From an uncultured Planctomycetota bacterium (GTDB lineage: Bacteria; Planctomycetota; PLA2; JAEUHO01), in contig CAVVXN010000001.1 in NCBI GenBank assembly GCA_963752285.1, positions 768,001 through 832,000 of the forward strand: 64,000 bases of DNA, in the 5' to 3' direction. A program made the translations under genes and the position numbers. Shown in pieces: positions 49,935-64,000 of this stretch. Under the pieces are notes generated by a model. The model saw only the letters and a list, made by a program, of their open reading frames with translations. It was not told the DNA's origin and did no database searches. Position 1 is the first letter of the stretch. The number at the start of each line of letters is the position of its first letter.

Positions 49935-50008
49935 GGGCCCGTAGCTCAATCGGTGAGAGCAGGGGACTCATAATCCCTTGGTTCCAGGTTCGAGTCCTGG
50001 CGGGCCCA
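49935..50008 (+). tRNA. tRNA with CAT anticodon, most likely tRNA-Ile2; CCA not encoded
   Basis: GGGCCCG/CGGGCCC-A acceptor stem, TAGCTCA..GGT..AGAGC D-arm, GGGA-CTCATAA-TCCC anticodon arm, GGTTCGAGTCC T-arm. Confidence 0.92.
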
Positions 50009-50158
50009 CTCCCCTCCAAGGGCCATTTCTTCGCCTCTGGCGCCCATCACGATCCGTAATCCACCCCCGACCGAGAGCCCCCGTTCGCGCAAGGAGCGGC
50101 GAGGAAGTGCGAGGTCGTGGCACCCGTCCCCCAAAGTTTCCCCCAAAGTGGCTCTCCG
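49960..50158 (+). repeat. 199-bp direct repeat, copy 1 (tRNA 3' part plus 150-bp arm; att site)
   Basis: Identical by eye to 62281-62479; contains tandem CCCCCAAAGT at 50128 and 50140. Confidence 0.92.
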
Positions 50159-52719: not shown

Positions 52720-53729
52720 TGGTCCCGCAGAGGAGCATTCCCGGTACTGGATCTCGCCCGTGCAGCAGTTCGGTGACCGAGTAGAAGCCGAGGTTGGTCT
52801 TCGAGCCCTTCGGCGGGCCATGGACGAAGTTCAGCGCATCGGCGGCGAAGCTTGCGATCCTCGCGCTGGTGGCGCTCCTGGGCCCGCGTCTCTCCTACGA
52901 ACGGGTCCGGATCTTCCTGCCGGGGCTGGGCCGGCGGGAGGCGAGATCGTGGCTCCGGCGCTCTCGGCGGGACTGGGCGCGGGCGCGGGAACGGGGGCAG
53001 GCGTTGCTCCGGTGGCTCGCTCCCGGGACGGTGTGGGCGATGGACTTCAGCGAGGCGCCCACTCCGATCGAGGGGCGGTACCGCTACCTGCTCAGCGTGC
53101 GGGACCTGGCGAGCGGGATGCAACTGGTGGCGCTGCCGTGCCACGACACGACCGAGGCCACGGCGACGGCCGCGCTCGAGGCGGCGTTCCTTGCGCACGG
53201 CGCGCCGCTCGTGCTCAAGACGGACAACGGCTCGGCGTTCATCGCCGGGGCGTTCCGGGCGCTGCTCCTTGCCTACGGGGTGACCGCCCTCTACTCCCCG
53301 CCACGCTGGCCTCGCTACAATGGGGCCTGCGAGGCCGGGATCGGCGGGCTCAAGACCCGGGCCCACCACCTCTCGGCGTGGGCCGGGCGGCCCGGCGAGT
53401 GGACCCTAGAGGACCTGGAGCGTGCTCGATGCTACGGCAACGAGTTCGGACGGCCGTTCGGGCGAAGTCGGCCCGTGCCGGCGGGGGTCTGGGCGACGCG
53501 GCGCCCCCCGACGCCGGAGGCGTCAGACGCCTTTCGCGAGGCGCTCGCCCGGCACCGGGAGGCGCTGGCCGCGGTACGACATCCCGAGTCGGGGCGTTCC
53601 CGGCTCGCGCTCGACGAGCGCACGGCGATCACGCGCGCGCTCACCGAGCTGGGCTACCTGGAGTTCAAGACGAGGCGCGTTTCTCTACCCATTTCCCCGC
53701 CTTTGGCGGCAGGGATTCTCTGAGGACCA
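52720..53729 (+). mobile_element. IS3/IS481-like insertion sequence, probably internally deleted
   Basis: TG...CA ends with imperfect inverted repeats (TGGTCCCGCAGAG versus TGGTCCTCAGAG). Confidence 0.65.
52794..53723 (+). CDS. DDE (rve-type) transposase, N-terminus probably incomplete
   Basis: WAMDF, LKTDNGSAF, YSPPRWPRYNGACEAG. Confidence 0.85.
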   Translation: MVFEPFGGPWTKFSASAAKLAILALVALLGPRLSYERVRIFLPGLGRREARSWLRRSRRDWARARERGQALLRWLAPGTVWAMDFSEAPTPIEGRYRYLLSVRDLASGMQLVALPCHDTTEATATAALEAAFLAHGAPLVLKTDNGSAFIAGAFRALLLAYGVTALYSPPRWPRYNGACEAGIGGLKTRAHHLSAWAGRPGEWTLEDLERARCYGNEFGRPFGRSRPVPAGVWATRRPPTPEASDAFREALARHREALAAVRHPESGRSRLALDERTAITRALTELGYLEFKTRRVSLPISPPLAAGIL

Positions 53730-53852
53730 CACAAGAACCTGGAGCCGTGGCCACGGGTCATGACGGCTCTATGGGGCGAGCAAATGCGGTTGGATGAAGT
53801 GCGGTTGCTGCAGCCATAGTGCGATGAGCGCCGCCGAGCTGTACTTGTCTGG

Positions 53853-56132
53853 GTGTCCGCACGTTGCGGCAACGAGGAGGTCGGGAGGATCGAAGTGACT
53901 ACCTTCCCGTCCTGCAGGGGGCGTGTGACCGTAGCGCGGTCGCGTCTTGTCTTGGGAACACACGTCCTTCGGGTTGTTTGTCAGTGGGTGCTGCTGGCGG
54001 TGACCCTCTTTGCGTGTCGCGCCGGAAGCCGCGGGCCAGTCGACGTTTGCCCGAAGGAAATCGAGCGCGATGCATCAGTGAAGCGACTGTCCACCGCTGC
54101 CGCTGCGTCGGCGGCAGCCGGTGTGCCGCGTGGTGCGAGTGCCTCGGTCGTAATCACAGTGGTGGATGGTTCTGCCAGACCCATCGCTGGTGCGCGGGTG
54201 CGTATCTCCAGCGATCTCACGGTACTGACTGGCTGGGACGGTGTCGCGCATGTGCAACGAGCGCCGGTCGGGGAGTACAGAGCAGCCATCTGGTCCCAGG
54301 GACATCGCGCACAGGCTGTCCCCCTGGAGGTGATCCCGGGAAGATCGGTATCGGCGCGAGTGGTCCTGCGCGCGTGCCGTGGTCTACGCAGTGTGGTCCT
54401 CGATGCCGAATCAGCTCGGCCAGTGGCAGACGCGGAGTTGCGCCTGTATGACGACGGCGACTGGGGAGCACCGTGGCCGGAGAGCGTCCCGGCCCATGTC
54501 GGTCGCCCGACTTGGCAGGCCCGAAGCGATGGGCGCGGGGAGATCACCCTTCCATGCTCCTGGGGCGCTCTGGAGATCCGTGCGCGTGGCTACGCAACGA
54601 TCTGGAAGTTCTACGACGCCACGAAATCAAGCATGCGCCGCCGGTTCCCGGTGTACCTCCCCCAGTCAGGATGCGTGCGGGGTCACGTCGTCGCGGGACT
54701 GGAAAGCCGATGCAGCGTCGTGGCGACGCCGAGAGAACTCGCGCTACACGTCTATCCTGACGAGGGTTATTCTGACCCGTTCTTATGGAGAACCCCCGTC
54801 TTCAGGGATGCGCTTCGGGTGAGGACGGTGTCCGTCCAGCAGGGGGGTGGCTTCTTCATCGAAGGGGAGCCGATCGGGGAAGTCCTTGTCCTACGTGTCA
54901 TGTGCTCCGGCCATGAGCCCGGTACTGCGGTGGTCGTGCGCGCGGCCCTAGGAAAGCGGAGTCCCGACGTGTCGCTCCGGCCAGGTCCGCTCTTCCTGCA
55001 GGGTAGGCCGGATGGGGACCGAAACCGCGACGCGACGACGTCGGCCTTCGAAGTGGCTGGGCAGGTTGTCGACGAGGCCGGAAGGCCGGTGGCGGGGGCG
55101 GGTGTCTGGATCCACGGAAGGCGGGGCGCCGCGGCCCTGACGGACGCAGGAGGACACTTCGCAGGGATACGGGGCGCACTGGAGCCTCTGACTGAGATCG
55201 TTGCAGCGAAGGCCGGCTACAGCCGAGCTACGCGGGACCTGCGGACGTCCGGCAACGCCAGGGTGGTCTTGACCCTGGAGCGAGCCGCGCGACTCGTGGG
55301 AGAGGCCCGGATCCCGATGACCGTCACGGAACCCGGATCTCTCGGCCTCTCATGGCAGCTCGGCTGGGGTGAAGCCGTGGTGCCTTGGCCCGCTCACGCG
55401 CGAGGACGCTTGCGATTCGACATCAGCGCTCCGCCTGGGCACCTTGGCGATCTTCGCATTGAAGCGTGGCCGTTCGCCGCGGAAGTTCGGCAGGTAGAGA
55501 CCGTGCCCGGCCAGACCCTCGATCTCGGAACCGTGCAGCTCGCTCCCATTCCTCATGAGGTGATCTCGGGCACGGTCCGGAGGGAAGAGGGCGGTGCGCT
55601 ACCCGACGCTGAGGTCACGTTCAAGCGCGATGAAGAAGTCGGTACGGCCGCGCAGGCGACAACGGATGAGGCAGGGGCGTTTCAGTTCAACGTTCGAGGT
55701 CAAGTGCTGGGCGGCGAGTTGCGCGTGGTGCGGGCCGGTTACTGCAATGTGGTGAGGCACATTGTAGCTGGTCCCGGGCCCAAGCGAGTGGACATCGCAA
55801 TGGAGGAAGCGGGGACGATTGAAGGAAGGGTCCTCGGGGCCGAGGGGCACCCTGTCTTCTTGCTCCAAATCGAGGCTTGGAGTGCGGCCTCGAAGGAGAC
55901 CTGGGGTGCCCTCACCTACACGGATCGTGGTGGACGTTACTACCTTGAGCTGAAGCCGGGGCTCTGGTCGCTGCGCTGGGCTCTTCCGGGGCACCAGCAC
56001 GTGGGACGTGGAGATGAGAGGATCATCCGGGATCGGTTCCGAGTTGGGGCAGGAGAGCACCTGTCCCTTGTAACGTACCTCTCGGACTTGCCTCAAGTGG
56101 GAGTTCCGAAGCCGCGCGAGCGTTCCCGGTGA
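53853..56132 (+). CDS. Exported protein with repeated carboxypeptidase-regulatory-like beta-sandwich domains; start uncertain
   Basis: Repeated G.V.D..G.P(V/I)AGA.V and TD..G.F motifs; possible lipobox LFAC. Confidence 0.75.
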   Translation: MSARCGNEEVGRIEVTTFPSCRGRVTVARSRLVLGTHVLRVVCQWVLLAVTLFACRAGSRGPVDVCPKEIERDASVKRLSTAAAASAAAGVPRGASASVVITVVDGSARPIAGARVRISSDLTVLTGWDGVAHVQRAPVGEYRAAIWSQGHRAQAVPLEVIPGRSVSARVVLRACRGLRSVVLDAESARPVADAELRLYDDGDWGAPWPESVPAHVGRPTWQARSDGRGEITLPCSWGALEIRARGYATIWKFYDATKSSMRRRFPVYLPQSGCVRGHVVAGLESRCSVVATPRELALHVYPDEGYSDPFLWRTPVFRDALRVRTVSVQQGGGFFIEGEPIGEVLVLRVMCSGHEPGTAVVVRAALGKRSPDVSLRPGPLFLQGRPDGDRNRDATTSAFEVAGQVVDEAGRPVAGAGVWIHGRRGAAALTDAGGHFAGIRGALEPLTEIVAAKAGYSRATRDLRTSGNARVVLTLERAARLVGEARIPMTVTEPGSLGLSWQLGWGEAVVPWPAHARGRLRFDISAPPGHLGDLRIEAWPFAAEVRQVETVPGQTLDLGTVQLAPIPHEVISGTVRREEGGALPDAEVTFKRDEEVGTAAQATTDEAGAFQFNVRGQVLGGELRVVRAGYCNVVRHIVAGPGPKRVDIAMEEAGTIEGRVLGAEGHPVFLLQIEAWSAASKETWGALTYTDRGGRYYLELKPGLWSLRWALPGHQHVGRGDERIIRDRFRVGAGEHLSLVTYLSDLPQVGVPKPRERSR

Positions 56133-56540: not shown

Positions 56541-56616
56541 ATGGCCTGCCGCGGTAGGATCCTGGCCATGGCCGAGCCCGGGGAAGGTCCGCGGTCGGGG
56601 CGCGTGGCGGTGCCGC
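56541..56616 (+). repeat. Rhs cassette leader, copy 1 (TAGGAT box plus ATG)
   Basis: 68/76 identical to 59461-59536. Confidence 0.85.
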
Positions 56617-56653
56617 CTGCGCGCGACGCTGGGACCAAGCGTGCGCGACGCGG

Positions 56654-57865
56654 GTGCTGGGCCGACGGGTGGGGAAGGCCGTGACGGGTGGCGTGACCGA
56701 GCGGTACGTCTACGCGGGCGTCGAGACGATCGCGACCTACGACGGCTCGAACACCTGGAAGCAGGACTTCGTCTTCGGCCAGGGGATCGACAACGTGTTG
56801 ATGCTCGAGCAGGCGGACGTGCTCGACTTCGACTCGGACCAGAACACGACCGAGACGACAAGGTCCTTCTACCACAAGAACGCGCTCGGCTCCGTGATGG
56901 CGATCACGGACATGAACGAGGCGACGGCGGTGTCGTACCGGTACGATCCGTACGGCGAGGTAACCGTCACGCGCGGATGGCAGACGCAGTCGGCGGACCC
57001 GCTGCAACAGCACTGGACGTACCCGGGGCGGTTCTTCGACGAGGAGACGGGGCTCTACTACTATCGGGCGAGGTGCTTTGGCCCGGAGAAGGGGAGGTTC
57101 CTGGAGAGGGATCCGCTGGGCTATCAGGTTGGTCCGCACTTGTACAACTATGCAGGCGATCGACCTATCGGCATTCGCGATCCACTCGGCCTGGACGGAC
57201 TGGCGGACCCCGACCGGGCAGGCCCTGAGCCTGGTAGCGCGAATGACCCCGGTGGGTTTGATGAGAATCGCGGAGGCGGGCAGTTTGATCCGTTTACGTC
57301 CAGCGCAGGCACTCTGGAGTTCAGACTCGATGTCTACTTCTGGATTCCACGTGGCCACGGCCCCGCGGGAGGACTCTACGTGCAGTCGCGCATCTTGGTG
57401 TTTGCGACCGGGTGCAAGACGCAGCCCGGGACGTCTTTGCCATGCCCCAATCCACGCCTGACCGTGGAGTACTTCAGGTTGGATGGATATCGGACGAAGA
57501 TCCCGGACACCCATAGCTCCACGTTCATGACTGGATACTGTGCGGGCACAGTGCACGTTAGTTTCACTCTTACCTTGGGCGCGTTGATTGTGCGGGACCC
57601 CAACACCGGCGACTGGACGTCCGGCGCAGCATACTACCGGGCAGCGGCGTACGGCTACGTTCCACCCGCCACCCACACGACGTTCGGATTGGATAATGTA
57701 CACTTCACTCCCCTGAGTCGGCCTCGACGGTGGTATTACCAATTCAATTTCGATCAATGCACAGGCTCACCATCCAGGATCCGGTGCAGCTGGGACAGGA
57801 TCACTCGCCCGAGGCTCCGAGAGGATCCGGTTCCGAAGCCGCCCGTCATAACGCCTAGTGACTAG
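56654..57865 (+). CDS. Orphan Rhs core + C-terminal domain 1 (partly degenerate)
   Basis: LGRRV, HKNALGSV, YDPYG, ETGLYYYRAR, GRFLERDPLG, PIGIRDPLGL, then a beta/Cys-rich tip. Confidence 0.9.
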   Translation: MLGRRVGKAVTGGVTERYVYAGVETIATYDGSNTWKQDFVFGQGIDNVLMLEQADVLDFDSDQNTTETTRSFYHKNALGSVMAITDMNEATAVSYRYDPYGEVTVTRGWQTQSADPLQQHWTYPGRFFDEETGLYYYRARCFGPEKGRFLERDPLGYQVGPHLYNYAGDRPIGIRDPLGLDGLADPDRAGPEPGSANDPGGFDENRGGGQFDPFTSSAGTLEFRLDVYFWIPRGHGPAGGLYVQSRILVFATGCKTQPGTSLPCPNPRLTVEYFRLDGYRTKIPDTHSSTFMTGYCAGTVHVSFTLTLGALIVRDPNTGDWTSGAAYYRAAAYGYVPPATHTTFGLDNVHFTPLSRPRRWYYQFNFDQCTGSPSRIRCSWDRITRPRLREDPVPKPPVITPSD

Positions 57866-59012
57866 GGAGTACGCTGTGAACGCCGGTCTGTTCCGAGGTT
57901 CGCTAGTGGCCGCCGCCTTCGTTGTGTCCCTTACCCTAGCCTCTTCTCGTGCCGAGGATCGACCTACCCGAGACGACGTGCGACATGTGTTCCGGGCATT
58001 CGCACCCGAGTACTACCGCCGCTTCTACGCCTGGGCCAATGCACAGACATTTGTGCCGGGAGAGAACCTAGGAAAGGAGGAGCGTGACGCACGATATGCG
58101 TCACTGCGCCGGAGGAGCGAGTTGTGGGCTGAGGCTTTCCAGGAGGTGTTGGTGCTGGACAGCGATCAGACCTTCGTGCTCGAGTTTCGCGACCTTGTGT
58201 CCATGCCTGACAAGGTGCCCGTGATGTCCGTGATCCCGGAAGGGGCATGGACCAAGTGGAGCGGTCGGTGGGCACGGACTGGAACGACGTTGCGACTGAC
58301 GGTGTGGCGAATCAATGGATTACCTGTGGCTTCGCCAGTTGACTGGGTGGCTGTATGGATTCGGAGAGAGGTCGTCATTCCGAACCTGCGACAGGGCTAT
58401 GCACCAGCGGTCATGCACGAGGTTCTTGGCGGGGATGTGGGTACGAACCAGGTCTTGGACAGGAATGAGGATGCAAGCCAGCGGTGTGTGTCTATCTCGT
58501 CGACGGAGAGTCGGCTCGGCAGGTTGGCAAAGAGCATTACGGGCCTGCTGCGATTCGCGCTTGGTGAGAAGCATCGCAAGGCGTCTCAGAGGAGCGCGTT
58601 TGCAGACAACCCTCACCATTGGCTGCAAGTGCTGCGGGGGCCGAACGAGGCGCAGTGGACGGAGGCTGCCGTGGAGCTCGTCCGTCTCCACTCCACTGAG
58701 GCTGCTACGACCTTCATGAAGATCCTCGATGAGCGGAGAGGTGAAGGCGAGGTTCGGGTAGTTGCGGCGAACGCGCTAGGGGAGTGGAGAGTCGTTGACA
58801 GTGTGCCCACACTGATACGATCTCTCCAGGACGAAGACCGCGTTGTGCGGCTTTCAAGTATGTACGCTCTGGAGAGCGTAACCGGTCACCACATCGAAGT
58901 CGAAGGAAGTGATCGGAGTGAGGAAGAGGTTGCGAGTTGGCTGCAATCGCAGTGGTCGGCCTGGTGGGCAGAGAACGAGGCATCTGTGCGTGCTTCTCAT
59001 GCCGGGAGCTGA
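57858..59012 (+). CDS. Exported HEAT-repeat protein, candidate partner/immunity of Rhs-CT1
   Basis: Overlaps the Rhs stop; signal peptide; VRVVAANALGE and DEDRVVRLSSMYALESVTG; W..WW end. Confidence 0.75.
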   Translation: MTREYAVNAGLFRGSLVAAAFVVSLTLASSRAEDRPTRDDVRHVFRAFAPEYYRRFYAWANAQTFVPGENLGKEERDARYASLRRRSELWAEAFQEVLVLDSDQTFVLEFRDLVSMPDKVPVMSVIPEGAWTKWSGRWARTGTTLRLTVWRINGLPVASPVDWVAVWIRREVVIPNLRQGYAPAVMHEVLGGDVGTNQVLDRNEDASQRCVSISSTESRLGRLAKSITGLLRFALGEKHRKASQRSAFADNPHHWLQVLRGPNEAQWTEAAVELVRLHSTEAATTFMKILDERRGEGEVRVVAANALGEWRVVDSVPTLIRSLQDEDRVVRLSSMYALESVTGHHIEVEGSDRSEEEVASWLQSQWSAWWAENEASVRASHAGS

Positions 59013-59460: not shown

Positions 59461-59536
59461 ATGGCCCGTTGCGGTAGGATCCTGGCCATGGCCGAGCCCG
59501 GGGCAGGTCCGCGGTCGGGACGCACGGCGGCGCCGC
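59461..59536 (+). repeat. Rhs cassette leader, copy 2
   Basis: TAGGAT at 59475-59480 and ATG at 59488, in frame with Rhs2. Confidence 0.85.
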
Positions 59537-61047
59537 GCGCCCGCAGGACAGGCTCGGCCCGCGGCAGGGCGGATGCGCCGGGCCGGCGGGTCGAGAAGGC
59601 CGTGTCGGGCGGCGCGACGACGCGCTACGTGCTCGACGCACAGCAGGTCGTCGAAGAGTACGACGGGCAGGACGTCTGGCAGGCGCGGTACGTCTACGAG
59701 GACGGGATCGACCGCCCGCGCGTCATGGACCGGGCGGACCAGGCGGACGTGAACGGAAACCAGAACACGACCGAGGTGCTCCGGTTCACGTACCACCAGC
59801 AGGCGCTGGGGTCGGTGACGGAGGTTTCGGAGCCCGGCGGGAGCGTCGTCGAGTGGGTGACCTACGACGCTTACGGCAAGCCCACGACTCTGGACCAGCA
59901 GGGAAACGCGGTCGCACAGAGCCCGGTCGGGAACCCGTACCTGTACACCGGGCGCGAGTATGACGCCGAGACGAAGACCTACTACTTCCGAGCGCGTGCG
60001 TACGACCCGGAGACTGGGCGGTTCCTGCAGAGAGATCCCGCTGGGTACGTCGGGGGGCTGTCCCTCCACCAGTACGTGGGGTCGGGCCCAGCTTCGTTCA
60101 CCGACCCGTCGGGGCTCATGCCGGAACCGAAGGACAAGGAGAACAAGCCAGTCGAGTGGCTTCGGTGGGCGGGCCAGCAACTCGTGGCTGCTCAGGAGAG
60201 GGCAGACGCTGCGTGGCGAGCCTATGACGCCGCTCTGGATGCGGCCTATGCGGCAGGGGGAGTGGTCAACGGTCTCCAGAAGCAGATCGACGATCTCAAG
60301 GAGAAGATCAAGGAGATGGAGGAGAAGTGCCTCGACACGACGCAGGAGGAGAAGGATCTTGCCAAGTTGGAGGAGCGCCTCGCGGACGCGAAGGCGGCGC
60401 AGGACGAGGCGTGGCATAAGGTCGACGAGGCTATCGCCGCCGCCGACACGGCTCAGGACGCTCTTGACGCCGCCGAAAACGAATTCCACAAGGCAGCGCA
60501 AAACATGTGGACTAAGAGCGGTGGGACCGGAAGTGTGCCACGCGGGGATCTCGGGGCTCTTAGCAGGGAGGACTTCAAGAGGTTGGCCAAACTCGATTTG
60601 ATCGCGTTCGGCGCGCGCGGGCAGGGCGGCGCCGATGACTGGTCTGCGCTGGCGATCGGCTACGGCCCGACCCGCTTCAGGGAACTAGGGATTGATCCAG
60701 ACACTGGACAACCTCGTATGGGTAGTGGGAACTCCAGGGGCATGTGGATTGATGTCAACGATACGTTGGACCCGGCGTACGGGGCGCGAAGTGGGATCGG
60801 TGAACAGATGCTAGGAGAGGTGTGGTTACATGAGGCTCGGCACTACTCGGAGGGAAACGACGAGCACTTTGTCTCATGGCCGGATGGAGCCATGCCGGAG
60901 ACAACCGACGCGAATCGATGGCAAGGCTACGAGGATCATTCGCCGGATCCGGCACGAGGAGTTGAGCATGGTGGGCGGAGTGGCTGGCTCCCGTATGACC
61001 AGCAGACGTCGCGTAACGCGCAAGTCGCCGGACGAAGGTACAGGTGA
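59488..61047 (+). CDS. Orphan Rhs core + coiled coil + HExxH metallopeptidase-like C-terminal domain
   Basis: GRRVEK, YDAYG, GNPYLYTGREYD, YDPETGRFLQRDP, PASFTDPSGL; VWLHEARH. Confidence 0.9.
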   Translation: MAEPGAGPRSGRTAAPRARRTGSARGRADAPGRRVEKAVSGGATTRYVLDAQQVVEEYDGQDVWQARYVYEDGIDRPRVMDRADQADVNGNQNTTEVLRFTYHQQALGSVTEVSEPGGSVVEWVTYDAYGKPTTLDQQGNAVAQSPVGNPYLYTGREYDAETKTYYFRARAYDPETGRFLQRDPAGYVGGLSLHQYVGSGPASFTDPSGLMPEPKDKENKPVEWLRWAGQQLVAAQERADAAWRAYDAALDAAYAAGGVVNGLQKQIDDLKEKIKEMEEKCLDTTQEEKDLAKLEERLADAKAAQDEAWHKVDEAIAAADTAQDALDAAENEFHKAAQNMWTKSGGTGSVPRGDLGALSREDFKRLAKLDLIAFGARGQGGADDWSALAIGYGPTRFRELGIDPDTGQPRMGSGNSRGMWIDVNDTLDPAYGARSGIGEQMLGEVWLHEARHYSEGNDEHFVSWPDGAMPETTDANRWQGYEDHSPDPARGVEHGGRSGWLPYDQQTSRNAQVAGRRYR

Positions 61048-62676: not shown

Positions 62677-63735
62677 ATGAGCAGATGGATCCTCACGCTC
62701 TCTTTGGCAGTTTTTCTGTGGCCAAGGGAGGCCCTAGCACGAGATGAGGAACAGCACGTCAAGGAGTTGCAGGAGAGAATCGCCGTGCTGGAGAAAGAGA
62801 ACCACGTCCTGAGGCAGAAAGTCCTCTGGCATGAGTTGCTAGCAGCGGCCCGGTTGCCCAGGTCGGCTACTCGTGTGGATGTACTCCGATTAGGCCCCGG
62901 TTCCCGTCAGGCAAATGAACGGAGCGAGCACCTCAAGGGGATCCGGCTTCCCGATCGCCCCTCCAAGAGCGCTGTAAGGGAGTACGTCGGGAGGATCCTC
63001 GAGGCGGCACAGGATCACCGGCAGGTTTTCGAGTCGGTCGATCCCGAGATTGCTCTACTGGAAGCGGTTGGCCCCGCCAATGTAGACATATTGATCGAAC
63101 CGCTCGTATACCTCCCTCACATAGGTCCCTCGTATTACCTCATCGAGGCACTCGATACACTAGTCGGGGCAGAGCACAAGGAGTTGATTCTCGATAACCT
63201 CGCCGCTGCCGATGAGCTCGTGGCGATTGTCACTGATCGTGGATGGGTGAGAGACGCGGCGCCGATATTGCTGGGGGTTCTCGCAAAGAGGTCTGCGTTG
63301 CTGTCGGTGGAGTGGGTAGAGGCGGCCGCCAAAGTTGCCGGCCCGGACCGTTACGACGACTTGAAGTTCCAACTCGTCAACAACATGTCTCCCCTTCGCA
63401 TCTGGAAGGCGATCCGCTCCTTGCCTGGAATTGGCCCACTGGACAAGTTGATCGCTGAGAGGTGGCAACGAACGCCGAGGGTCGAGGACTCCTGGTCCTG
63501 GCAGCGGCTCGCTGCAGTCGCTGCCTACTGCGGTCACCTAGATGCGTTGGCGGCCGTGGTGCGGCACCTAGAGTCGAATGATGGGGAATTGTGGGGGACA
63601 TTCCAAACCCTGACTGGCTATGATGGTCAACCTGGCCCCCCGGAGCAGGCTGAGAAGGCAAGGAGGTGGTTCGCGGAACATGAGGGCAGCCTTGTCTTTG
63701 ATCGTTCGCAGGGGCGCTATCGAATCGTCAAGTGA
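62677..63735 (+). CDS. Exported hypothetical protein (signal peptide, short coiled coil, helical domain)
   Basis: Strong SD AAGGAGGTGA; MSRWILTLSLAVFLWPREALA; KELQERIAVLEKEN. Confidence 0.75.
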   Translation: MSRWILTLSLAVFLWPREALARDEEQHVKELQERIAVLEKENHVLRQKVLWHELLAAARLPRSATRVDVLRLGPGSRQANERSEHLKGIRLPDRPSKSAVREYVGRILEAAQDHRQVFESVDPEIALLEAVGPANVDILIEPLVYLPHIGPSYYLIEALDTLVGAEHKELILDNLAAADELVAIVTDRGWVRDAAPILLGVLAKRSALLSVEWVEAAAKVAGPDRYDDLKFQLVNNMSPLRIWKAIRSLPGIGPLDKLIAERWQRTPRVEDSWSWQRLAAVAAYCGHLDALAAVVRHLESNDGELWGTFQTLTGYDGQPGPPEQAEKARRWFAEHEGSLVFDRSQGRYRIVK

Positions 63736-63772
63736 GACGCACGAGCTCAGCGCGGCCACCATCTGAGCCGAG

Positions 63773-63844
63773 GAGCGGGATGCGTGAATCGCGCACGTCC
63801 GGATGTGTGGAAGGCCCGGGAGGCAACTCCCGGGCCTACCCGAC
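63773..63844 (+). ncRNA. Group II intron 3' fragment (domains V and VI only)
   Basis: DV GAGCGGGATGCG-TGAAT-CGCGCACGTCCGGA with AGC triad; DVI AGGCCCGGGAG-GCAA-CTCCCGGGCCT followed by bulged A and CCCGAC end. Confidence 0.85.
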
Positions 63845-64000
63845 TCCGTACGGTACGGTCACGATCACGCGGAGGGGGCAGACACAGTCGTCGGATCCCC
63901 TGGGGCAGCACTGGACGTACACGGGGCGGTTCTTCGACGTGGAAAGCGATCTGTACTACTTCCGTGCGCGCTACTGCCACAGCGGCCTCGGGCGCTTCAT
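63845..64000 (+). pseudogene. Third orphan Rhs core fragment, startless, runs off the window
   Basis: From 63846: PYGTVTITRRGQTQSSDPLGQHWTYTGRFFDVESDLYYFRARYCHSGLGRF; homologous to Rhs1 from 56947. Confidence 0.85.

Follow-up and report, generated by a model that had tools for sequence, protein, structure and literature searches.

A group II intron remnant joined to an orphan Rhs cassette in an uncultured Planctomycetota bacterium looks like mobile-element debris

The locus and its genomic setting

The window (the whole stretch of DNA analysed, 64,000 nt; G000:C1:768001-832000) comes from the assembly of an uncultured Planctomycetota bacterium (G000; 4.64 Mb, 73% GC, five contigs) that is 89% complete by marker genes. 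A tRNA was the sole Rfam match at gathering level in the whole window. After a tRNA-Met gene begins an island with a GC content lower than that of the genome (60-70% vs 73%), which covers window positions 49935-66700 and houses a stub of a putative group II intron, limited to domains V and VI (DV and DVI), followed by a fragment of an Rhs gene. Besides this stub-linked fragment the island contains two further short Rhs core-plus-tip cassettes. The features are as follows.

49935-50009: tRNA-Met, after which the low-GC island begins
52785-53723: rve-type integrase ORF, within the low-GC island
53820-56132: first CarboxypepD_reg repeat protein, within the low-GC island
56654-57865, + strand: 'Rhs1', a 403-aa core-plus-tip cassette and not a full rhs gene
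57858-59012: HEAT-repeat ORF, within the low-GC island
62677-63735, + strand: upstream ORF, 352 aa, with codon-position GC of 0.67/0.43/0.68 and its stop codon at 63733-63735
63763-63844, + strand: 5'-truncated group II intron remnant, the final 82 nt (linker, DV, DVI), on the basis of profile, blastn and RF00029 matches
63773-63805, + strand: DV, 33 nt, sequence GAGCGGGATGCGTGAATCGCGCACGTCCGGATG
63808-63844, + strand: DVI, 3' end ...CCTACCCGAC
63845-64000 and on past the window edge, + strand: orphan Rhs fragment, stop codon at C1:832839-832841 (window-equivalent 64841)
64655-66733, beyond the window edge: second CarboxypepD_reg repeat protein, within the low-GC island

The two CarboxypepD_reg proteins that flank the Rhs cassettes were considered as duplicates of each other, which was rejected as the similarity between them is not significant.

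The initial annotation regarded the gene upstream of the stub as unrelated to it, and this is borne out: the stub starts 28 nt past the stop codon of ORF 62677-63735, which is not an intron reverse transcriptase (RT). The possibility that this ORF is a decayed intron RT was rejected on a BLASTP comparison with the RT of an intact relative of the intron (in genome G015; best E 0.23). The encoded protein has a signal-peptide-like N-terminus (MSRWILTLSLAVFLWPREALA) and matched nothing in Pfam or NCBIfam; the ORF may belong to the preceding Rhs module, as a cassette or an immunity gene.

The Rhs fragment, translated from 63846 as PYGTVTITRRGQTQSSDPLGQHWTYTGRFFDVESDLYYFRARY..., comprises the whole Rhs-associated core domain, ending in DPLGL, and then a tip of approximately 250 aa that belongs to no known family. 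It matches NCBIfam TIGR03696 with 64.7 bits (cut-off 32.5) over profile positions 5-76 of 76. A YD-repeat shell in frame with the fragment is absent, as its upstream neighbours are the intron stub and the unrelated gene. Orphan Rhs tips as such are well known.

The sequencing runs listed for this sequence are three DNA runs, all from soil and from one study, with small shares; none of them is an RNA run. Three 151-nt read contigs on the locus are 100% identical to the assembly; the one over L003 2833-2983 spans the junction between stub and Rhs fragment, with 12 nt on the intron side (bridging minimum, 31 nt).

The intron stub and its junction with the Rhs core

Against RF00029 the stub scores 20 bits (E 0.14 in 501 nt), below the gathering cut-off of 40; the intact homologous copies that relatives contain settled this sub-threshold match quickly. 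A DNA search of 60 related genomes found copies of the same 80-nt stretch with approximately 80% identity in three of them (G005, G009, and G015) and a partial copy in a fourth (G046). The G015 copies are three identical complete introns of 2,019 nt that start with GTGCG, match RF02005 (D1-D4-6) with 113 bits, and carry an ORF of 442 aa with an RVT_1 domain (E 3e-39) and a score of 343 bits for TIGR04416 (group II intron RT/maturase; cut-off 300). Both intact relatives pass the RF00029 cut-off of 40, with 44.8 bits in G009 and 42.5 bits in G015. The stub aligns with positions 1941-2019 of the G015 intron at 82% identity over ~76-82 nt (blastn E 1.6e-14), and a profile made from 51 copies, including 250 nt upstream of DV, aligns to the window only at 63763-63844, through profile positions 236-319 of 319 (E 1.4e-22). 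Because of this homology to verified intron 3' ends and the extent of the profile alignment, the remnant corresponds to the last 82 nt of an intron. Sequence homology identifies window positions 63763-63844 as genuinely homologous to the DV/DVI 3' ends that RT-bearing group II introns have in related genomes.

The stub retains several elements of a group II intron 3' end. After DV, the sequence reads TGTGGAA-GGCCCGGGAG-GCAA-CTCCCGGGCC-TACCCGAC, with its last base at 63844. DVI forms a perfect hairpin of 10 bp (63813-63822 with 63827-63836, loop GCAA), and the candidate branch-point A lies at 63838, 7 nt from the intron end. In DV, alignment with the other copies shows that the catalytic triad (AGC), the 2-nt bulge (AC), and the upper helix are present. 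The fold z-score of the hairpin just after the upstream gene is -3.7.

A metagenome scan with the central DV motif, which returned more than 121 loci and from which 80 copies were analysed, allows these elements to be compared with the intron class at large. The lower helix of DV in the stub has mismatches at 1x33 and 5x29, in addition to the family-typical G3.A31. G63777 breaks pair 5x29 and G63805 breaks pair 1x33, whereas intact copies have C at both positions: the 5' strand of this helix is GAGCCG in 75 of the 80 metagenome copies and never GAGCGG (0/80), and the helix-closing base after GGAT is C in all 80 copies and G in the window. In the basal helix of DVI, GGGG has changed to GGAA at 63811-63812, resulting in one mismatch, A63811 x C63839, directly under the candidate branch-point A63838. 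DVI, initially described as well paired, has a perfect hairpin and one mismatch in its basal helix; DV is not well paired, owing to its lower helix. ViennaRNA predicts the canonical two-helix DV with its bulge, and DVI with a single bulged A, for eight out of eight comparison copies and neither fold for the window copy, in which the 5' strand of DV pairs with the DVI tail. The upper DV stem differs between subfamilies, being GCGU/GCGC in the window, in G005 and in the metagenome copies (which were retrieved by that motif), and GCGG/CCGC in G009 and G015; as a compensated subfamily trait that the stub has in common with G005 and the metagenome copies, this is not decay. According to a review of these elements, some organellar introns with a dependence on host factors tolerate mispairing in the helices of DV or DVI (PMC4424553).

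The stub ends at 63844 and is followed without spacer by TCCGTACGGT. Five blastn alignments of the fragment to Rhs cores in G000 all start at 63845, with unrelated upstream flanks. These cores, which are of the same subfamily, are 'Rhs1' in the window and those at C1:7152, C1:18891, C2:15656, and C5:307416; they carry ...GTGTCSTACCGSTACGA/TCCGTAYGG (slashes mark the junction), where the fragment has ...CCGGGCCTACCCGAC/TCCGTACGG. Rhs homology thus sets in at GA/TCCGTA, with the third base of the Asp codon in YDPYG. It had been noticed at the outset that a group II DV/DVI, standing alone, is joined exactly to a fragment of an Rhs core; this is confirmed by intron homology that ends at 63844 and Rhs homology that starts at 63845. 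The equivalent site assigned to 'Rhs1' is also correct: it is GA/T at 56946/56947, within an uninterrupted YRYD/PYG. A genome of the same genus (G001) has an uninterrupted YRYDPYG as well (...VSYRYDPYGTVTITRGGQ...). A search of the genome contigs for the junction pattern CCTACCCGACTCCGTAYGG gave six chance matches in unrelated coding or intergenic sequence, none of which involves an intron or Rhs (0/6), and these were set aside.

No stop codon interrupts the reading frame that runs through the stub, in phase, into the Rhs fragment. An in-frame GTG at 63732 and an ATG at 63780 are found upstream, so that, although the fragment was described as lacking a start codon of its own, such codons are available to it. 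The ATG lies inside DV, is preceded by GAGGAG (63770-63775), and opens a frame of 353 codons in phase with the fragment. A further correction concerns 'Rhs1', which is a core-plus-tip cassette and not a full rhs gene.

Other parts of the intron, its relatives and the other Rhs cassettes

The absence of domains I-IV (DI-DIV) and of an RT ORF, first noted for the window, extends to the whole G000 assembly by profile, Rfam, Pfam, blastn, and tblastn searches. Upstream of the stub DV, no domains I-IV with a 5' GUGYG are present, and only 28 nt separate the stub from the preceding stop codon. The whole G015 intron has no match in G000 beyond its positions 1941-2019 (blastn, nhmmer). A DI-DIVa profile built from 34 metagenome copies gave no match in G000 at E<=10, and the same profile recovers the introns of the relatives with E-values of 5.5e-148, 7.9e-129, and 2.2e-22. 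Neither Pfam RVT_1 (PF00078) nor TIGR04416 matches the 89% complete genome, the best tblastn hit of the G015 RT has an E-value of 3.5, and the best scores in G000 for RF02001, RF01998, and RF02005 (15.6, 14.3, and 15.4 bits) are each far below the cut-off. The stub family has a copy number of one in G000 by blastn and by a 67-copy DV/DVI profile (E 1.4e-14; next best E 8). None of the five Rhs1-type cores in G000 is interrupted at GA/T (0/5). The genome is 89% complete and the starts of three contigs fall inside Rhs arrays, so repeats that did not assemble could contain an intron 5' part.

G000 contains a second lone DV/DVI, of a different intron family, at C2:572053-572114 (locus L001 1501-1562; RF00029, 37.5 bits). 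It is located 140 nt past the stop codon of a full-length Rhs and forms no junction with a core. The ORF just downstream of it is non-Rhs, encodes a predicted membrane helix and starts from a GAGGAG-GTG of its own. Homologs of this element are found in a contig interior in G010 and at contig ends in G019 and G024, the latter as expected of a multi-copy mobile element.

The intron class of the stub is widespread in soil and sediment metagenomes and occurs with an RT/maturase in three related genomes. An RT is present in the locus for 52 of the 80 metagenome copies. For 66 copies the presence of an RT could be assessed (at least 500 nt of upstream sequence), the other 14 having too little upstream sequence, and 14 of these 66 are lone 3' stubs without RT; some come from near-identical loci, leaving roughly 11 independent ones. 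Lone 3' stubs are thus routine in this class. The G005 copy is also a lone stub, situated between a zinc-ribbon ORF and a Fic-like ORF.

The insertion targets of the intact relatives are non-Rhs. Each of the three G015 copies (loci L024, L025, and L026; G015:C7) lies in a short repeated target, ...CACGAAGA/intron/AACGAAGCGCAA, with flanks ...GCTCACACGAAGAGCACGAAGA / AACGAAGCGCAAGCGT..., and three identical copies in a repeated target indicate that the G015 intron homes into another repeated element. An Rhs core is found near none of the 80 metagenome copies (best tblastn E 0.25), and no intact intron of the stub's class lies inside rhs among these 80 copies and 40 genomes of the order.

On contig C9 of G009 (locus L008 1506-1581), the intron end ...CCTACCCGAC is followed from the next base (1582) by GTGCGCC..., which begins the D1-D4 domains of another intron (RF02001, 139.7 bits; RF01998, 36.6 bits). 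This is a head-to-tail intron pair, and the metagenome locus L067 has the same junction sequence.

Rhs cores match at 23 places in G000; contigs C1, C2, and C3 each start with an array, and many of the matches belong to these arrays. None of the 22 copies other than the fragment is preceded by a DV/DVI. Six short core-plus-tip cassettes have a conserved leader of approximately 110 nt (...GGTAGGATCCTGGCCATGGCCGAGCCCGGGGCAGGTCCGCGGTCGGGACGC...) in common, located as follows.

56541-56660 and 59470-59585 of the window, and upstream of C3:13423: ~110-nt leaders
C1:55164-55278, C1:59913-60027, and C1:64007-64121 of G000, - strand: ~110-nt leaders

The leader joins the core at a single point, YRYD/ALGRRVEKAV, that differs from the stub junction. 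Its ATG shares the reading frame of the core in all six cassettes except 'Rhs1', where a gap of 1 nt shifts the frame. Substitutions in the leader show no preference for third codon positions. Beyond G000 it has weak matches only, of ~40 bits. The leader was also considered as another kind of DV/DVI, which was rejected on the lack of an Rfam match and a fold z-score of 0.31; candidate explanations are an N-terminal extension, a 5' UTR or a recombination scar.

Three near-identical leader-core-tip cassettes are arranged in tandem on the - strand of G000 at C1:54,600-64,700. A complete tRNA-Gly(CCC) (locus L170 2032-2107) stands before the outermost, and only the 3' half of this tRNA before each of the other two, as might be left by an island that integrated repeatedly at a tRNA gene.

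Origin of the junction and comparison with known systems

Our preferred reading, to which we assign a probability of roughly 0.87, is that the stub is what remains, without function, of a mobile group II intron that formerly resided in an rhs core; it has lost its 5' part and is now fused to an orphan Rhs cassette. This is the simpler of the explanations offered at the outset, a decayed intron once in the Rhs core, and the one that the evidence favours. An intron of the stub's class, oriented in the sense direction, would have entered the core-coding sequence of an rhs gene and split its Asp codon into GA and T. A later deletion or illegitimate recombination would then have taken DI-DIV, the RT gene and the 5' part of rhs, so that the cassette would have lost everything upstream of the YD/PYG codons; the same event would have brought the stub next to the 3' flank of the gene before it. 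If the intron inserted inside rhs, the exact junction needs no coincidence, and a chance breakpoint at the last intron base is less economical. The exact junction therefore suggests that a group II intron was once present inside the conserved core-coding part of rhs, at the edge of the Rhs-associated core domain.

Since the stub is without the other four domains, has lost base pairs in DV and DVI and has no partner in the genome, splicing at this locus probably no longer takes place. The Rhs fragment would then be a silent orphan without present function, which could at most serve as a recombination reservoir. Several observations count against debris: the stub still has an intact DVI hairpin, candidate branch-point A, AGC triad and 3' end; some organellar introns tolerate mispaired DV or DVI helices (PMC4424553); no stop codon interrupts the frame through the stub, with GTG 63732 and ATG 63780 in phase; the assembly is 89% complete, with the starts of three contigs inside Rhs arrays; and a second lone DV/DVI close after another Rhs tip is a mild coincidence. 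The proposed insertion in rhs also has no living example, with 0/80 metagenome copies near an Rhs core and 0/6 junction-pattern matches. Nevertheless, the locus looks like ordinary mobile-element debris rather than a toxin-tip-swapping splicing system.

The alternative that survives best concerns only the origin of the junction and is still rather unlikely: the intron may never have been inside rhs, the stub deriving from an intron located after ORF 62677-63735 to which the Rhs fragment was joined by illegitimate or microhomology recombination. The stub would be debris here as well. The intron end CCTACCCGAC and the Rhs sequence ahead of the junction, GTACCGCTACGA, have TACC and CGA in common, the intact relatives use non-Rhs sites, and Rhs arrays are recombination hot spots, judging from the many orphan cassettes, all of which is consistent with such a fusion. 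However, it requires a chance breakpoint exactly at the last base of the intron, and the entire intron terminus has been kept, including the final C.

It is improbable that the stub has been co-opted as a translation start, with GAGGAG (63770-63775) and ATG 63780 expressing the orphan as a small core-plus-toxin protein. The 353-codon frame from this ATG is open and in phase with the Rhs fragment, and the same ATG in the G005 stub is in phase with the downstream Fic-like ORF. Annotated start codons inside D5/6 motifs are also described for C. tetani (PMC3919590). However, ORFs of at least 100 codons that start from the DV ATG are no commoner in lone stubs (3/14, two of them at the same locus) than in RT-bearing introns (9/52), and for this reason we take the phase of ATG 63780 to be a coincidence. 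GAGGAG stands no more than 4 nt from the ATG, and between the upstream gene and the ATG there is no promoter-like site, the one weak site (63595-63624) being inside the upstream gene. Furthermore, an Rhs tip that lacks a YD-repeat shell is not known to have a delivery route, which also speaks against this reading.

The initial annotation had raised RNA-level or retro-mediated swapping of Rhs tips. In its most explicit form, the stub would be a functional acceptor for alternative or trans-splicing that joins different Rhs tips to one shell at the RNA level, like C.te.I1 of Clostridium tetani. If the stub worked with a distant 5' part, this bacterium could fit an Rhs shell with another toxin tip through its RNA. 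The idea is tempting: the junction is exact and keeps the phase of the Asp codon, the intron has the sense orientation and retains its branch-point A, 3' end and AGC triad, the genome is incomplete with three contigs starting within Rhs arrays, and the C. tetani precedent, with four D5/6 motifs, is real (PMC3919590). We nevertheless consider it very unlikely. Additional DV/DVI copies at the same Rhs phase, an rhs gene interrupted at the site by an intron 5' part and the junctions in relatives had been put forward as checks; G000 has a single unit, the 4.64-Mb assembly contains neither DI-DIV, nor an RT, nor an interrupted rhs core, and the intron relatives lie at other, non-Rhs junctions. Substitutions at positions that 75-80 of 80 copies conserve disrupt two pairs in DV and one in DVI. 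The other 22 Rhs cores have no DV/DVI, and the six with a different, unstructured leader have another junction; the second lone DV/DVI precedes a non-Rhs ORF with its own ribosome-binding site. Swapping of tips at the RNA level or through retro-mediated events is therefore unsupported, with a single copy, no intron 5' part or RT and helix-breaking substitutions, and the attribution of toxin swapping to this locus can be removed. A variant in which the missing ~10% of the genome holds an rhs core with ...TACGA followed by DI-DIV, so that the stub still works, perhaps aided by the host, as a distant 3' splice unit, is more doubtful still.

Finally, a chance resemblance, in which a GC-rich, terminator-like hairpin after the upstream gene mimics DV/DVI, could draw on the Rfam score of 20 bits against a cut-off of 40 and on the strong hairpin just past the gene end (z -3.7), and is refuted by the homology to intact introns (82% identity over 76-79 nt to verified intron 3' ends, E 1.6e-14 and 1.4e-22), with no T-run and 0 sites in a terminator scan.

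The remnant reading can be set against four known systems. In enterobacteria, orphan rhs-CT core/tip cassettes occur downstream of the main rhs genes. Similar to these, the fragment is a 5'-truncated piece of core with a variable tip, in an array with other cassettes. In contrast to them, its 5' boundary is an intron stub, and the neighbouring cassettes have the ~110-nt leader.

The C.te.I1 intron of C. tetani has four D5/6 motifs, each followed by an ORF with an annotated start in the motif, and its splicing has been shown in vivo, according to the published description (PMC3919590). As in that system, the D5/6 of the stub directly precedes an ORF fragment without an N-terminal part, and an ATG lies inside D5. 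In contrast, C.te.I1 as described there combines DI-DIV after the 5' exon with four D5/6 units in one locus (PMC3919590), whereas the stub is one degraded unit, known from DNA alone, in a genome in which no DI-DIV was found. Where a C.te.I1-type system has several D5/6 units, each with an alternative 3' exon, G000 has one.

Group II intron-mediated exon shuffling has been described for relaxase genes (PMC7947834). What the locus has in common with this work is the notion of a group II intron that recombines coding exons, whether in RNA or in DNA; the intron in that account is active and has an RT (PMC7947834), in contrast to the stub, at which nothing is active.

The fourth comparison is with the truncated or fragmentary group II introns of bacteria. 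Most bacterial copies are described as truncated or inactivated, often among mobile DNA (PMC4424553). As truncated copies are the commonest state of these introns, the stub as it stands matters little. Like them, it keeps only the 3' end of the ribozyme, without RT, among mobile or variable DNA and with disabling substitutions; in contrast to them, its 3' end is fused to a coding fragment of an Rhs core and not to intergenic or IS sequence.
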